Position numbers and translations under genes: made by a program. The notes under the pieces were generated by a model. It was given only the letters and a program-made list of their open reading frames with translations. It ran no database searches and had not been told where the DNA came from. From positions 1-64,000 of the IMG/VR virus record IMGVR_UViG_3300032243_000867: DNA of 64,000 bases. One strand, written 5' to 3'. The stretch comes from a virus (lineage: Duplodnaviria > Caudoviricetes). Positions 3,796 to 42,083 of the stretch are shown piece by piece (the stretch's first letter is position 1; each line of letters begins with the position of its first letter).

Positions 3796-4142
3796 ACCGC
3801 AAACTCGTTCGTAACGAGGGCGAGATCGTCGCCCTTGTGGTATCTGTCCTTGGGGAAGGGAACCCCAAGGCCCTCGAAGACATGCTGGGCATCGAGTTCG
3901 CCTACTCGGACGGTCGCTACCCCAGTGACCTCGAAGACGCCACCCCCTACGATGGGGACTGGTCGTGGGAGGACCAGCCCGTGGACTTCACCACCTACCG
4001 CCACGGCGAGGAGCCATACTTCCCGGCGACGTACCCCGCCTTGGCCCTGTACCTGTTCGACGATGACTTCGACCGGGGCGGGTCGGTGCGTACGCGGGTG
4101 CTGCTCTACGTCGAGCGCCACGAACTGGAGGGGGCGTCGTGA
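3792..4142 (+). CDS. Hypothetical protein
   Basis: GTGA overlap with previous stop; acidic/aromatic composition. Confidence 0.65.
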   Translation: MNRKLVRNEGEIVALVVSVLGEGNPKALEDMLGIEFAYSDGRYPSDLEDATPYDGDWSWEDQPVDFTTYRHGEEPYFPATYPALALYLFDDDFDRGGSVRTRVLLYVERHELEGAS

Positions 4143-4507
4143 GGGTCGCGATCAGCTACGAAACAGCCCTCGCGCGGCACCCCGCCGCCGTCGCGGAGGT
4201 GCTGGCAATACTCGCCAAGTCCCGGTCCAAGGACTCGGACTGCGACCCCACTCACTTCGCGTGGGCCTACTCGTGGGGCCTCTCCTTCCAGTGCGCCACG
4301 CTGGGCGAACTCCTCGCGGGGCGCAAACTCTCCGAGACCCGCTCGCTGGAAGAGCGCGTCGGGAGCATCTCCCTCTACGCCGACAAGGGCCGGAAGTACG
4401 CCTACTCCCACGGCACCTACGACTACGCCCGCGACGGGGCTGAAGCCCTTCCGCCCGAAGTGCGGGCCTATCACTGCGCGGAGCGCCCCGAACTCGAAGG
4501 TTCGTAG
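4139..4507 (+). CDS. Hypothetical protein
   Basis: GTGA overlap; 122 aa. Confidence 0.65.
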   Translation: MRVAISYETALARHPAAVAEVLAILAKSRSKDSDCDPTHFAWAYSWGLSFQCATLGELLAGRKLSETRSLEERVGSISLYADKGRKYAYSHGTYDYARDGAEALPPEVRAYHCAERPELEGS

Positions 4508-4608
4508 CGTAACCGGGCCTTCGGTCGGTATCCCGCTAGGGCGAAAAGTTACCCGACCGCTTCGGGGGGGGTCGGGCGACGGGGGTTTTCGCTACGAAGT
4601 TTCGATTC

Positions 4609-4648
4609 GCCGGGGCGACTCCCCTCGAAGGGAGTCGCCCCGGCCTTT
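4609..4648 (+). terminator. Intrinsic terminator
   Basis: Perfect 15-bp stem GCCGGGGCGACTCCC/GGGAGTCGCCCCGGC followed by CTTTT. Confidence 0.7.
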
Positions 4649-4699
4649 TCGCGTTCCGAAAGTTCTTCGGTCCGGGGGGCGTAACGGAAGGAGAGGACG

Positions 4700-4993
4700 A
4701 TGGATCGTGACCATGGCTTGAACGGGTGCGACTGCTGCGGATGCTCTCAAGGCTCCCACGAGGGCGAGGGCCTTGAGGCGTATGTGATCCGGGGGCGTTG
4801 CGAAACCTCCCGCCGCATCCGTGCAGGGGAGCGTCTCCCTTGCGCCGCGTGCGGGGAGGGAGACGTGGGGATGACCCCTTGCACCGCGTGCAAAACAAAC
4901 GCCGCTGACAGCGGCATGGTCCCTTACTCGGTGCTGGGGCTCACACCTCCCCGACCTCTCTTCAAGGAGTGGTGCGGGTTCCTCAACGACTGA
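4700..4993 (+). CDS. Cys-rich hypothetical protein
   Basis: AGGAGAGG RBS; CDCCGC, CAAC, CTAC motifs; GGGCGTAAC at 4677-4685. Confidence 0.6.
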   Translation: MDRDHGLNGCDCCGCSQGSHEGEGLEAYVIRGRCETSRRIRAGERLPCAACGEGDVGMTPCTACKTNAADSGMVPYSVLGLTPPRPLFKEWCGFLND

Positions 4994-5005
4994 AGGGTGT
5001 TGGTG

Positions 5006-5152
5006 ATGGAATGGGTAGTGGTCCGTGGGGGTTCCTACCGCTACCGCTACGGGGTGATGGTTCGGGCGGCGAAGGTCTGCAAAGAGCCTCCCGAGTCGCT
5101 CGACCGGGAGCCCGGGTTCCGCACCCGCCTACCTGTGAGGCAACCGAGATGA
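5006..5152 (+). CDS. VR-like micro-ORF 1 (FGE/CLec C-terminal segment only)
   Basis: Hand translation MEWVVVRGGSYRYRYGVMVRAAKVCKEPPESLDREPGFRTRLPVRQPR; stop overlaps next ATG. Confidence 0.65.
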   Translation: MEWVVVRGGSYRYRYGVMVRAAKVCKEPPESLDREPGFRTRLPVRQPR

Positions 5153-5319
5153 CCAAGAACGGCAACGAGTCACCGATCTTGGGCGTTCGCGGCGGCAACT
5201 GGGACAACGACCGTAGGTTCTATGTGCGGGTGTCGTTGGAGGAGATTCAGTTTGGCTCCCAGCTTCGGGGCACGGACACGGGTTTCCGCACCTCCCTCTC
5301 TGCGAGGCAACCGAGATGA
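5149..5319 (+). CDS. VR-like micro-ORF 2
   Basis: MTKNGNESPILGVRGGNWDNDRRFYVRVSLEEIQFGSQLRGTDTGFRTSLSARQPR; ATGA overlaps at both ends. Confidence 0.7.
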   Translation: MTKNGNESPILGVRGGNWDNDRRFYVRVSLEEIQFGSQLRGTDTGFRTSLSARQPR

Positions 5320-5471
5320 ACACCCCGTACTTCCGCATCCGAGGGGGATGTTGGATCGCCCGCGATCCGTGGTGGGTTCGCCCTGCGCTCGACACCCCAC
5401 AGAAAGCTGACGTGAACATCAACAGTCTCGGGTTCCGCACCTCCCTCCCTGCAAGGATGCACCGCGTATGA
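5316..5471 (+). CDS. VR-like micro-ORF 3
   Basis: MNTPYFRIRGGCWIARDPWWVRPALDTPQKADVNINSLGFRTSLPARMHRV; ATGA overlaps. Confidence 0.7.
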   Translation: MNTPYFRIRGGCWIARDPWWVRPALDTPQKADVNINSLGFRTSLPARMHRV

Positions 5472-5641
5472 GCGCCACCAAACTTCGAGAAGAATCCCAC
5501 CTTGTTCTTCGTGGGGGTTCTTGGAACCGCACGGGTACCCGCACCTTGCGTACCTATTTCAAAGGGGGGGAGCGACCCGCGCATTTCGACGACTGTCTGG
5601 GATTCCGCACGATGCTGCTGGGGCGTAAGGCACGGGCATGA
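5468..5641 (+). CDS. VR-like micro-ORF 4
   Basis: MSATKLREESHLVLRGGSWNRTGTRTLRTYFKGGERPAHFDDCLGFRTMLLGRKARA; stop overlaps the kinase ATG. Confidence 0.7.
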   Translation: MSATKLREESHLVLRGGSWNRTGTRTLRTYFKGGERPAHFDDCLGFRTMLLGRKARA

Positions 5642-6174
5642 AGCTCATCGTTTTGGAAGGCTGCGACGGCACGGGTACGAGCACCAACGCGAAGAAGTTG
5701 GGGGAGGCCCTCCAGCGCGAGGGCTACAAGACCCTCGTCTACCACCACCCGCCACATCGTCCGGGTGGGGGTGACTGGGAGCGGTCCCTGCACTACGCGA
5801 GGGAGCGGGCCGAGATGGCCACCCGCACGGCGGACGACACGGTGGTGGTGGCGGACCGCTGGGTGTACAGCACGGATGCGATTGCCAAGACCCTCGACGG
5901 CGAGGTTCGTGGGAGGCTGCTGGCCCTCACGGCACTGGAGAGGCAGTCTCTCCCGACCCCCACGCTCATCGTCCTGCTCGACGCCCCCGACGCGGTGCTG
6001 GACGAGAGGCTCACGGCCCGTGGCGAGTCTCTCCCTCCGCACCGTGGCGAGCTTCGTCGTGTGTACCGCGAGAGCATCGCCATGACGTGCGACGTGACGG
6101 TGAACACGGCGGGAGATAGCGGTCGGGTGTCTGACCGTCTGTTGTCCTTGGCCAAGGCTGCACTGGAGGACTGA
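5638..6174 (+). CDS. tmk: Thymidylate kinase-like (dNMP kinase)
   Basis: LIVLEGCDGTGTST P-loop, VVVADRWVYS, TLIVLLDAP. Confidence 0.8.
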   Translation: MKLIVLEGCDGTGTSTNAKKLGEALQREGYKTLVYHHPPHRPGGGDWERSLHYARERAEMATRTADDTVVVADRWVYSTDAIAKTLDGEVRGRLLALTALERQSLPTPTLIVLLDAPDAVLDERLTARGESLPPHRGELRRVYRESIAMTCDVTVNTAGDSGRVSDRLLSLAKAALED

Positions 6175-6175
6175 C

Positions 6176-6340
6176 ATGAGCAAGGGTCTACCGAGGGTCT
6201 GGAAGGCGACGGTCACGTACGAGGTGTACGTTCTCTCACACCGCGCCGACGAAGCAGCGGACTGCGCCAAGCTGAACCGGGACTGCTACGCGGACATCGA
6301 GCAATGGCTGGAGCGCATCAAGAAGGAGGGGGGCAAGTGA
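6176..6340 (+). CDS. Small hypothetical protein
   Basis: GGAGG RBS; MSKGLPRVWKATVTYEVYVLSHRADEAAD...; resembles the N-terminus of the next ORF. Confidence 0.55.
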   Translation: MSKGLPRVWKATVTYEVYVLSHRADEAADCAKLNRDCYADIEQWLERIKKEGGK

Positions 6341-6672
6341 GCGAACCCAAGCTGTACCGGGTAAGAATCGAAGCCGACGTGTACGTCGTCGCGGCCAGCG
6401 AGCGCGACGCCGAGGACTACGCCCTGCGGGAGAGTGACGTGGTGAACGACGCGATGGACAACGCCGACGCCACGGCTTCCGTCGTCACGGCGAAGAGTCT
6501 GAGCGGCGCGGAGGAGAACTGCCTCCCGTGGGTGGACGACGACTTGGAAGACGGCGAGGTTGACCGGGACCGCACGGTGAAGGCATGGGCGGAACTGAAC
6601 GACGCCTCCACGGCCCAAGCCAAGCGCGAGCGTGAGTTCAACGCCAAGCAACTGAACATCCCGGGGACGTGA
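6337..6672 (+). CDS. Hypothetical protein
   Basis: GTGA overlap with GGAGG RBS; VSEPKLYRVRIEADVYVVAAS... Confidence 0.65.
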   Translation: MSEPKLYRVRIEADVYVVAASERDAEDYALRESDVVNDAMDNADATASVVTAKSLSGAEENCLPWVDDDLEDGEVDRDRTVKAWAELNDASTAQAKREREFNAKQLNIPGT

Positions 6673-6887
6673 TGCGAACCTACCACATTCGCATGAGGGA
6701 CGACTACGGGTGGACCTTGGGGAAGGTATCCCCCGACGCGCCCAACAACAGCGCCGTTCTCACCGTCGAGCGGGACGGCACCCGCTGGGTCAGCCGGGTC
6801 AACGTGGACCGCCTGTCCATCGCAGACCTTTCCTCCCTCGCGGAGTTCTGCGCGCACGCGAAGCTCGACACCGGGCGCGGGACGTGA
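6672..6887 (+). CDS. Hypothetical protein
   Basis: Overlaps previous stop; 71 aa. Confidence 0.55.
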   Translation: MRTYHIRMRDDYGWTLGKVSPDAPNNSAVLTVERDGTRWVSRVNVDRLSIADLSSLAEFCAHAKLDTGRGT

Positions 6888-7052
6888 CCGTGGACGCGAC
6901 CCTACGGCAGACGAGCGGGTCATCCGCAACGGTTACCGTGGTTACCTTGCGGGGAGCATGGAGGCCATCGTAGACACCGCAGCCCCCTGCGAGGCGGTGG
7001 GGGCACGGTTGCTTGAGCTCTCCCCAGCGGCCCTTCGGGCGTAAGGTAGACC

Positions 7053-7712
7053 ATGAAGACATACACGTCGGGTGATCTCAAGGAAATCGTTCGACTCCAC
7101 GGACTGTGGCTTGGAGATCCCGCCACGGGTTCTCGGGCGACCTTGACCGGGGCGAACTTGTACAGGGCGTACTTGACCGGGGCGAACTTGACCGGGGCGA
7201 ACTTGACCGGGGCGAACTTGTACAGGGCGTACTTGACCGGGGCGAACTTGACCGGGGCGACCTTGGCCGGGGCGAACTTGACCGGGGCGACCTTGGCCGG
7301 GGCGAACTTGACCGGGGCGAACTTGACCGGGGCGTACTTGGCCGGGGCGACCTTGGCCGGGGCGTACTTGACCGGGGCGACCCTCCCCCCCTTCCAGATC
7401 GTTCCCGAGGTGGGCCAGTTCCGGGCCTTCAAGAAGGTTCAGGGGAACGTAGTACTGGAGCTTCTGATCCCCCGGTCGGCCCAACGGACTTCGACCCTCG
7501 TGGGTCGGAAGTGTCGGGCTTCCAAGGTCAAGGTTGTCGGTGTCGCTAGCGGGACCACCACGGAGACCGTTTTCCGGTCTCCCCACGATGAGGTTTTCAC
7601 CTACGAGGTGGGCAAGTGGGCAAGCGTTTCCGACTACGATGGGGACATCCGGGTGGAATGCACCAAGGGGATTCACTTCTTCCCGACCCTCAAGGAAGCT
7701 CAGGATTATTGA
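7053..7712 (+). CDS. Pentapeptide-repeat protein with DUF5758-like C-terminus
   Basis: About 17 A(N/T/Y)L-type pentapeptides; C-terminal KCRASKVKVV...YEVGK...ECTKGIHFF. Confidence 0.85.
   Translation: MKTYTSGDLKEIVRLHGLWLGDPATGSRATLTGANLYRAYLTGANLTGANLTGANLYRAYLTGANLTGATLAGANLTGATLAGANLTGANLTGAYLAGATLAGAYLTGATLPPFQIVPEVGQFRAFKKVQGNVVLELLIPRSAQRTSTLVGRKCRASKVKVVGVASGTTTETVFRSPHDEVFTYEVGKWASVSDYDGDIRVECTKGIHFFPTLKEAQDY
7134..7384 (+). repeat. 15-nt tandem repeat encoding the pentapeptides
   Basis: Units such as ACCGGGGCGAACTTG / GCCGGGGCGACCTTG / TACAGGGCGTACTTG. Confidence 0.9.
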
Positions 7713-36083: not shown

Positions 36084-36393
36084 ACCTGTGAAAATCCCAA
36101 TCCGGGCGGGTGCCCGTGACGGATACCTCGACTCCCATCTCGTAACCCGCGTCGTAAGCGCAGTTGTCGCCCTCTCTCAAAGAGGGGTCGCGGCCCATTC
36201 CTTCACGGCCCATAACGTAGCCCGCGGCGAACGAACCCCGGTCACCGAAGGGTGCCGGAACTTCGCCCCAGCGTAGGCGGTTGACCTCCATCGTGAGGAG
36301 GGTGTCTTGCTTTTTACCGCCGAGGAAGTTGGGGTCGTTCCTAGCGGCTAGATGGAACAGAACGGCGTACGGGTTCACAGTCTTTTCCCCCAT
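36070..36393 (-). CDS. Hypothetical protein
   Basis: 107 aa; downstream of the MTase in the same orientation. Confidence 0.5.
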   Translation of the reverse strand: MGEKTVNPYAVLFHLAARNDPNFLGGKKQDTLLTMEVNRLRWGEVPAPFGDRGSFAAGYVMGREGMGRDPSLREGDNCAYDAGYEMGVEVSVTGTRPDWDFHRFTAN

Positions 36394-36941
36394 GTCGTGG
36401 CGTCGAGCCTGTCAGGGTTGGGGTTGTAGGGGTGTTGTTCAGAATTCGCTATTCCCGCAAGCTCTTCATGGTGCAGCGTGCGGTCCGGGCGGGGGTCGTT
36501 ACCGTAGTGAATCATTACGTTCCATCGGCAGGGTAGGCACTTCACGGTGCCCCTCAACACGAGGTGGGAGAACAGGTCGGGCGTCCCGCAAGCGGTCCCG
36601 TCCGTGTTCTTGCCGACGTAGAGGACGTGGGGGATGGAGCGGAGAATCCCCGTCAATCCCATCAGCGTGTAGTTCTGGGGCCAGCACAGGACGGCCACCT
36701 CTACGCCCTCCGGGCACTTCCAATGCGCGAAGTAGCTCTGATGTACCTCGACCTTGGGGTGCTCCACGGGACACGGTCCCTTGTCCACGGCGTGGACGAG
36801 CGTAGCCCCCATGTCGGCCATCGTGCGGGAGAGCTCGCCGCTACCGCATCCTAAGTCCGCGACCGCGCGCCCTTCGACCACAGTGCGGAGGTAGGCCAAC
36901 TGTTCCTCTGACAGCGTGTAGTAGGTGCCCGTCCTGCTCAT
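36375..36941 (-). CDS. Class I SAM-dependent methyltransferase
   Basis: VADLGCGSG motif I; HAVDK. Confidence 0.75.
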   Translation of the reverse strand: MSRTGTYYTLSEEQLAYLRTVVEGRAVADLGCGSGELSRTMADMGATLVHAVDKGPCPVEHPKVEVHQSYFAHWKCPEGVEVAVLCWPQNYTLMGLTGILRSIPHVLYVGKNTDGTACGTPDLFSHLVLRGTVKCLPCRWNVMIHYGNDPRPDRTLHHEELAGIANSEQHPYNPNPDRLDATTWGKRL

Positions 36942-37111
36942 CGGGGTTCCTTTCCCCGCAGCGCGCACCGAAACCCCAGGTTGAGGATCCGGTACGCAGG
37001 CACGCTCGTGTGGCGAGACGCCGCGCTCACCCACGACGGTACGTTGAGGCCCCAACTGCCGCCGCGGATGACGAGGTAACGGGTGTCGGTGGGCTTTGTG
37101 GGGGGTTTCAC
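36938..37111 (-). CDS. VR-like micro-ORF 5
   Basis: Hand translation VKPPTKPTDTRYLVIRGGSWGLNVPSWVSAASRHTSVPAYRILNLGFRCALRGKEPR; GTGA/ATGA overlaps at both ends. Confidence 0.75.
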   Translation of the reverse strand: MKPPTKPTDTRYLVIRGGSWGLNVPSWVSAASRHTSVPAYRILNLGFRCALRGKEPR

Positions 37112-41742: not shown

Positions 41743-41928
41743 TCAGCGGAGTATCGTTCGCGGTTCCCTTCCCCGAAGGGCGCACCGAAACCCGGCATCG
41801 TCGAGACGGCACGCAGGCACGTCCGCGCCGCGAGACGCGGCGCGCACCCTCGACGGTACGTTGCTGTACCAACAGCCGCCGCGTTGGACGCGAAGGCGGG
41901 TGTCAGTGGGCTTGGTGGTGGGGTTCAT
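41743..41928 (-). CDS. VR-like micro-ORF 6
   Basis: MNPTTKPTDTRLRVQRGGCWYSNVPSRVRAASRGADVPACRLDDAGFRCALRGREPRTILR. Confidence 0.75.
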   Translation of the reverse strand: MNPTTKPTDTRLRVQRGGCWYSNVPSRVRAASRGADVPACRLDDAGFRCALRGREPRTILR

Positions 41929-42083
41929 ACTCGGGGGCTCCTTCCCGGCAGGTGGGTTCGGAACCCGTGGTCGCGGAAAAAAATTGTGGGCTTGTACTCT
42001 TGAAACGACGCGGCGGGTAGGAAGGCCGCGAGGTGGTACCAAGACCCGCCACGAATCACGCGAAGCCGGTTGTCGATCCTCAC
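41925..42083 (-). CDS. VR-like micro-ORF 7
   Basis: GAGGTG RBS; VRIDNRLRVIRGGSWYHLAAFLPAASFQEYKPTIFFRDHGFRTHLPGRSPRV; ATGA overlap. Confidence 0.7.
   Translation of the reverse strand: MRIDNRLRVIRGGSWYHLAAFLPAASFQEYKPTIFFRDHGFRTHLPGRSPRV

Follow-up and report, generated by a model that had tools for sequence, protein, structure and literature searches.

DGR-type lectin-fold proteins are the main known route by which phages and bacteria attain massive variation of a binding surface, and to our knowledge every description of them has been of a single polypeptide. Binding is also varied by the invertible segments of Mu Gin and P1 Cin and by shufflons, where a constant N-terminal part is combined with pre-encoded alternative C-termini; the parts are joined in DNA by site-specific inversion, and one is expressed at a time. 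In the DGR C-type-lectin/FGE variable proteins of the Treponema TvpA type, an RGGSW...GFR segment constitutes the variable, ligand-facing C-terminus (PMC5758913). DGR targets may be multiple and tandem (up to eight in tandem), and targets down to 44 aa are listed, the smallest of which are called whole Ig or lectin folds (PMC5758913). Scaffold-less VR genes are not described in that paper, and the limited set of full-text literature that we searched contained no description of such genes or of a split architecture. Members of the FGE/EgtB/SUMF1 family (PF03781; structures 4x8b, 2aii and 1y4j) are single-chain enzymes.

The window analysed here covers the opening 64 kb of a 265,895-bp IMG/VR virus contig (G000) from a freshwater phage with 64% GC, and it carries the same RGGSW...GFR segment at positions 5006-5641 (cluster A). 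As among DGR targets, the genome holds paralogous cassettes (the GFRC class) with an AAC-to-NNC codon signature. Unlike DGR targets, however, the domain is split over two genes, the variable segment stands alone 25 times with its own starts, searches for RT, Avd and TR found none, and cluster A is without a mutagenesis signature. In contrast to Mu Gin and P1 Cin, the system has no invertase or inverted repeats, and joining would take place at the protein level. One domain would be made from separately translated pieces, as in split phage genes such as split inteins, but here there are no intein motifs, the alternative second pieces are many and covalent joining is not expected. Whereas the FGE/EgtB/SUMF1 enzymes are single chains, the last ~60 residues form a separate polypeptide in this phage, with no catalytic role implied.

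Four chained mini-ORFs and a family of 25 cassettes

Cluster A lies within a nucleotide-metabolism operon, and its features and immediate neighbours are as follows.

4612..4650, plus strand: GC-rich inverted repeat followed by CCTTTTCG, terminator-like as read from the sequence
4700..4993, plus strand: Cys-rich 97-aa ORF, a ~308-nt insertion into the ancestral A1 start, outside the system
5006..5152, plus strand: mini-ORF A1, 48 aa, GFRT class, family HMM E 3.6e-21
5137..5152 and again 5304-5319, plus strand: junction motif GAGGCAACCGAGATGA, in which an SD-like GAGG and a spacer precede the next ATG, itself overlapped by the TGA stop
5149..5319, plus strand: mini-ORF A2, 56 aa, ATG over the A1 stop (ATGA), HMM E 6e-18
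5316..5471, plus strand: mini-ORF A3, 51 aa, ATGA overlap with A2, HMM E 8e-22
5468..5641, plus strand: mini-ORF A4, 57 aa, ATGA overlaps at both ends
5638..6174, plus strand: thymidylate-kinase-like gene (tmk), ATGA overlap with A4, Pfam Thymidylate_kin 1.2e-8, phrog_761 3.3e-15

The ORF listing and a reading of the sequence bore out the initial annotation, which had described four ORFs chained by ATGA overlaps and running into tmk. The overlaps lie at 5149, 5316, 5468 and 5638, each with GAGG or AAGG 8-12 nt upstream, and A1 has AAGGG 8-9 nt 5' of its ATG; cluster A therefore shows the stop/start overlaps with SD-like motifs within ~15 nt upstream that characterize a translationally coupled operon. 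The motifs attributed to each ORF, (V/I/L)RGG(S/N/C)(W/Y) and GFRT, were present in all four. The 16 nt said to be common to the first two ORFs, GAGGCAACCGAGATGA, occurred as exactly two copies against a chance expectation of 0.04, and the 3' anchor reported for the first three, searched as GGNTTYCGCAC(C/G), was found in all four cassettes (5114, 5281, 5430 and 5600; 0.33 expected). Against a family-built profile searched in six-frame translation, A1-A4 scored E-values of 6e-18 to 8e-22, which agrees with the proposal that each ORF represents only the C-terminal segment of the FGE-sulfatase/C-type-lectin fold (PF03781 ~195-254, with RGGxW and GFR anchors). With the Pfam FGE-sulfatase profile (PF03781), A4 was the sole match among the four (E 0.0028, profile 210-253 of 255) and fell under the cut-off (17.8 bits vs 23.3), unlike the GFRC paralogues, which exceed it. 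The 25-26 residues between the motifs had been called highly variable; this holds between paralogues but not between orthologues, in which they are nearly fixed. PHROGs contained no family for the mini-ORFs, blastn of the cluster A region against the phage collection gave no match, and neither did Rfam over 4000-7000.

Among the neighbours, the Cys-rich ORF had no Pfam or PHROG match and is missing from the related contig L005, in which homology begins at 5002. In runs X2 and X15, 4713/4715 is joined to 5022, a deletion of 4714-5021 that places the ATG at 4700 in frame with A1. In other populations, the ATG at 4700 (MDRD...) reads directly into the A1 cassette. A role of the Cys-rich ORF as a "mini-scaffold" was ruled out because the insertion is missing from relatives. 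The inverted repeat at 4612..4650, which was not among the matches of a simple consensus scan for terminators, probably lies at the beginning of the transcription unit containing cluster A, judging from its sequence. The tmk-like product has 178 aa and is 97% identical in L005; in three lake metagenomes its gene has lost 1 nt and gained 1 nt at positions 8 nt apart (5895 and 5903), a compensated frameshift that recodes ~3 residues. Positions 7053-7712 encode a 219-aa pentapeptide-repeat protein with A(N/T)L(T/Y)GA repeats, whose C-terminal domain matches phage families of unknown function.

A six-frame profile search of the whole contig recovered 25 mini-ORF cassettes at 8 loci, which answers the question of copy number raised by the initial annotation and corrects the view of cluster A as a unique array. 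Within the window, the loci are 5006-5641 (four cassettes), 36938-37111 (one) and 41743-42083 (two); the others, in genome coordinates, are 70882-71571 (four), 252239-252457 (one), 254030-255014 (three), 261339-262120 (four) and 262880-263933 (six). The cassettes of the window outside cluster A are as follows.

36938..37111, minus strand: mini-ORF B, 57 aa, GFRC, ATGA-coupled to a SAM-methyltransferase-like gene (Pfam methyltransferase matches)
41743..41928, minus strand: mini-ORF C2, 61 aa, GFRC, ATGA overlap with C1
41925..42083, minus strand: mini-ORF C1, 52 aa, GFRT, GTGA overlap with the upstream DUF7336 gene

Each of the 25 cassettes is an intact ORF of 48-72 aa; in 23, the start and the preceding stop overlap as (A/G)TGA. 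They fall into two classes, GFRC (beginning MNPPTKP..RLRV) and the more diverse GFRT, which includes cluster A. A conserved tail, ...RGREPR(T/V)stop, is encoded by GGAAGGGA followed by a spacer and the next start; its cluster A equivalent is GAGGCAACCGAGATGA, and the analogous junction in the other arrays reads GGAAGGGAACCCCGA(G/A)(T/C)(A/G)TGA. On the minus strand of 36375-37111, a single GFRC cassette is first in its operon and joined by ATGA to the SAM-methyltransferase-like gene; from this coupling of a lone cassette to a methyltransferase gene it follows that the cassette tail also provides the ribosome-binding region for unrelated genes.

The same layout was found in L003, L004 and L012-L014, which belong to the same phage clade (87-94% nucleotide identity), and in L005-L007, IMG/VR contigs from another sample. 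Five related loci yielded further cassettes, all 33 of them intact with overlapping starts; across genome and relatives, 58 of 58 are intact, and 56 combine an (A/G)TGA overlap at the start with an SD-like motif, as expected of stand-alone VR-segment genes and not of pieces broken from a single long one. Cassette number differs among close relatives (four vs seven at the D locus; L012 unlike L013). L005 is 97% identical to G000 from 5002 onward and keeps the four cluster A ORFs, with one amino-acid difference in A2 and four in A3; A1 has another N-terminus in L005 and in runs X2/X15, but its ORF is intact. Cluster A is also present on contigs from four lake/freshwater metagenomes, in which A2 has an in-frame GAG insertion (+3 nt; two lake metagenomes), the A1 start has a 6-nt deletion, A1 is swapped for another cassette in at least one contig, and a 137-nt deletion (two metagenomes) fuses A3 and A4 with the frame exactly preserved, between codon 13 of the former and codon 9 of the latter. 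The frame-disrupting mutations in homologues that would have spoken against functional genes were seen neither in L005 nor in these four metagenomes. Selection on cluster A appears weak or undecided, with an omega of ~0.49 based on only 12 non-synonymous and 8 synonymous changes, compared with 0.17 for tmk. In a search of sequencing runs, the cluster A sequence was found in DNA runs only and in no RNA run. Among related proteins, P0163 (347 aa) joins a cassette to the N-terminal end of a scaffold homologue, and P0084 (L014:6271-6552) has one fused to the downstream gene.

L003 and L004 connect G000 position ~303 to ~265626, and the two contig ends resemble the two ends of one alanine-repeat gene; because the ends adjoin in relatives and the break falls in this gene, the contig is probably near full circle despite its CheckV value of 59%. 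The end regions 1-420 and 265476-265895 carry copies of a ~100-nt element (303-399 vs 265516-265626, 78% identical).

The truncated FGE scaffold and predicted docking of the mini-proteins

The initial annotation had called for a search for a full-length scaffold lacking its C-terminus. A Pfam search of the whole contig found one FGE-sulfatase N-terminal part (profile 12-198; 263921-264412, minus strand), in a gene that ends exactly where mini-ORFs begin.

263930-264799 of G000, minus strand: scaffold ORF, 289 aa, N-terminal beta-rich domain followed by FGE profile 12-193

The scaffold ends ...GNVWEWTSTVHK, directly before the missing segment, and its stop overlaps the ATG of H1, the first cassette of the six-copy array. 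Alone it covers FGE profile positions 12-193; read through into H1, it covers 12-253 of 255 without a break (E 2e-37), so that scaffold plus H1 spans the whole Pfam profile. Across the contig junction, the scaffold lies ~6 kb from cluster A, on the opposite strand. Its best ~45 homologues (43-94% identity) have 242-354 aa, mostly 268-277, and consist of the scaffold part only. All 40 aligned homologues, down to 42% identity, end at the same residue. Such a shared end marks the split as ancient and conserved and excludes a pseudogene or a sequencing error as its origin. Among three relatives, the scaffolds diverge by 13% and H1 hardly at all. When H1 (G000 263757-263933; L001:13757-13933, minus strand) was compared with L003:3058-3234 and L004:5811-5987, its dS was 0.004-0.046 vs 0.25-0.28 for the adjacent scaffold, and this low value suggests nucleotide-level constraint or recent exchange.

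AlphaFold gave the scaffold alone a pLDDT of 88.7 and an FGE/EgtB-like fold, and its best Foldseek matches in PDB were EgtB and FGE (4x8b, 2aii and 1y4j; E 1e-6 to 1e-5). The N-terminal domain received no identification from Foldseek against PDB and BFVD. A4 alone (AF2, family alignment) was predicted with a pLDDT of 46.9 and no secondary structure. For scaffold residues 118-289 modelled with A4, ipSAE values were 0.93, 0.93 and 0.95 compared with 0.01 for the best control, although this score may reflect model memory of the single-chain FGE fold and does not discriminate which family member is bound. Of the 78 solved complexes in the calibration, 51 attained this ipSAE mark, as did 2 of 108 mismatched pairs. 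The model contains ~200 contacts, made by peptide residues 10-52 and the last scaffold strand (276-288), with a peptide pLDDT of 79-81. These predictions support docking of A4 on the scaffold in a manner that would complete the fold, and the suggestion of scaffold completion in trans accordingly passed its structure-model test with controls (ipSAE 0.93 vs 0.01) at the level of a prediction.

Adenine-mutagenesis signature and cassettes in other lineages

An adenine-mutagenesis signature is described for AAC-rich templates (PMC5758913), and the GFRC class shows it. Among 42 GFRC cassettes, nine hypervariable codon columns were NNC in 29-39 of ~40 copies, other variable columns changed at position 1 only (ACG) or at position 2 only (GNG), and framework codons were nearly constant; orthologous GFRC cassettes differed at exactly the sites of the hypervariable columns. 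The GFRC class thus carries a clear DGR adenine-mutagenesis codon signature. In the GFRT class, cluster A included, third-position C amounted to 47% in variable columns vs 43% genome-wide, with no NNC bias, and these columns contain K, E, M and Q. Differences between cluster A orthologues were not adenine-specific (T>C, G>T, C>A and others). Variation only at template adenines, which defines a DGR variable region, was found in the GFRC paralogues alone, and cluster A lacks it.

No RVT_1 was detected in G000 (266 kb, rated 59% complete) or in two related contigs (G001 and G002), tblastn with BPP-1 Brt and Avd gave no match, and a YxDD scan gave no RT motif. Four inferred all-AAC template patterns had 0 matches in viral and metagenome contig collections, a result of little weight since the patterns were guessed, and the 25 family members of G000, all of them ORF cassettes, included no adenine-rich copy at the variable sites. 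The link of cluster A to a DGR, raised in the initial annotation along with a search for RT, Avd and template repeat, is not borne out by these results. Genome contigs compared with a GFRC cassette yielded only full-length Myxococcales proteins of 40-45% identity and no host with matching VRs.

A phmmer search with A4 against 1.84 billion representatives returned one close relative, P0241 (57 aa, 91% identical), and weaker matches that include scaffold-less proteins of 2-4 tandem cassettes. Two of the weaker matches were followed to their contigs. In L017 (60% GC), a four-cassette ORF comes after a truncated scaffold of 210 aa, and L018, a phage-like 86-kb contig with 47% GC, has 13 cassettes in four ORFs beside a 153-aa scaffold ending GNVYEWTSTPHESQRS; the same split (scaffold ...EWT plus ~10 aa, with cassette arrays) recurs in these two unrelated lineages of 47% and 60% GC. 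Framework codons are the same in all 13 copies of L018 and the variable codons are NNC/NNT, as in a textbook DGR signature; no RT and no 14th copy or template was found within 31.7 kb. The multi-cassette array at L018:4468-6965 is also present in L019 and L020. In the ESM Atlas, 82 of the 100 clusters nearest A4 are FGE-only proteins of 50-72 aa, and the closest cellular FGE domains with GFRCALRG belong to Myxococcales MAGs.

Explanations for the split architecture and its implications

We favour, with moderate confidence, the explanation that cluster A encodes translated, trans-complementing variable-segment peptides of a split lectin-fold protein. The architecture is conserved and its ORFs are intact; translation, a mixed population and a biological target we infer. 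Each mini-protein would be the C-terminal, ligand-facing segment of the FGE/C-type-lectin fold (roughly PF03781 195-254), and each mini-ORF would start at its own ATG over the previous stop by termination-reinitiation coupling, with the SD-like AAGG/GAGG in the tail of the preceding ORF serving the next start. Presumably unfolded alone, a mini-protein would fold onto the 289-aa scaffold, adding the missing strands and a variable binding surface, and 25 alternative segments with one scaffold would give a mixed population of two-chain lectin-like binders. Cluster A would then supply four fixed, non-hypermutated specificities, while the GFRC paralogues would be additionally diversified, now or formerly, by DGR-type adenine mutagenesis. 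We hold only tentatively the fuller proposal that an invariant scaffold pairs non-covalently with any of ~25 peptides, some fixed and some hypermutated by a DGR-like enzyme not encoded by the phage. Several observations weigh against trans-complementation: cluster A and the scaffold are on opposite strands and may be expressed without coordination, other copies lie ahead of a methyltransferase gene, 25 peptides facing one scaffold imply strong competition, cluster A is under weak constraint (omega ~0.49 vs 0.17 for tmk, from few changes), and the fusion of several cassettes in one ORF in some relatives fits docking of one peptide on one scaffold less neatly.

The cassettes could instead matter as DNA, as targets or stores of DGR variable regions, with cluster A consisting of old VR copies that the template no longer addresses. 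The NNC columns of the GFRC class (29-39 of ~40 copies), the differences between orthologues at those very sites and the 13 cassettes of an unrelated lineage with identical framework codons and NNC/NNT variable codons all fit such a role, but the cluster A class has neither NNC bias nor adenine-specific orthologue differences, no RT, Brt, Avd or all-AAC template was found in the contig, two related contigs or the collections, and a pure DNA role leaves 58 of 58 intact ORFs with overlapping starts unaccounted for; we regard it as unlikely. A DGR reading of the GFRC class alone is compatible with the split-scaffold explanation and does not exclude it. To a similar degree we consider it unlikely that the mini-proteins work without the scaffold, for instance by interfering with host FGE/CLec proteins (kinases, STAND-type sensors) or as small binders or inhibitors. 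The scattering of copies in unrelated operons (before tmk, before a methyltransferase gene), the 82 of 100 nearest ESM Atlas clusters that are 50-72-aa FGE-only proteins and the nearest cellular GFRCALRG FGE domains in Myxococcales MAGs would agree with scaffold-free action; yet A4 is predicted to be unfolded alone, the exactly complementary truncation of the scaffold and its coupling to H1 are conserved, and an intact host domain has its own C-terminal segment in cis.

Silent donor cassettes that recombine into the expression site next to the scaffold by gene conversion or by deletion, in the manner of vls/pilS-like antigenic variation, would account for a variable core between conserved 5' and 3' anchors and for copy numbers that vary among close relatives (four vs seven at the D locus; L012 vs L013), and the 137-nt deletion fusing A3 to A4 shows that inter-cassette recombination occurs. 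A vls/pilS-type system, however, has cassettes without starts and a changing expression site, whereas here 56 of 58 cassettes have overlapping starts, all are equipped with a start codon and an SD-like motif, the expression-site cassette H1 is nearly identical in three relatives despite scaffolds that differ by 13%, and cluster A lies in another operon on the other strand. Because the cassettes have their own start codons and H1 is conserved rather than swapped among relatives, the donor-cassette role suggested in the initial annotation is disfavoured and seems quite improbable. Least credible, and in our judgement very improbable, is that the mini-ORFs are decayed fragments or chance ORFs, or that the real gene is a 151-aa antisense ORF at 5129-5584. 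This antisense frame is open in both G000 and L005, with a pN/pS of 0.70 that is no worse than the 0.64 of the plus frames, but the plus frames give four independent family matches while the antisense ORF has no Pfam match, the 137-nt deletion of two metagenomes would frameshift the antisense ORF and keeps the plus-strand ORFs in frame, and 58 of 58 cassettes are intact. The decay, chance-ORF and antisense readings alike are largely refuted.

If the split-scaffold explanation is true, supply of the segment in trans would generate diversity by gene number and protein-level mixing, without a reverse transcriptase, and the short "FGE fragment" ORFs so frequent in metagenomes would count as functional genes and not debris. 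The GFRC arrays, with their adenine-mutagenesis signature but no RT or template in reach, raise the question of trans-acting or host-borne DGRs. Protein engineers would gain a naturally split lectin scaffold that accepts interchangeable binding inserts of 50 residues.
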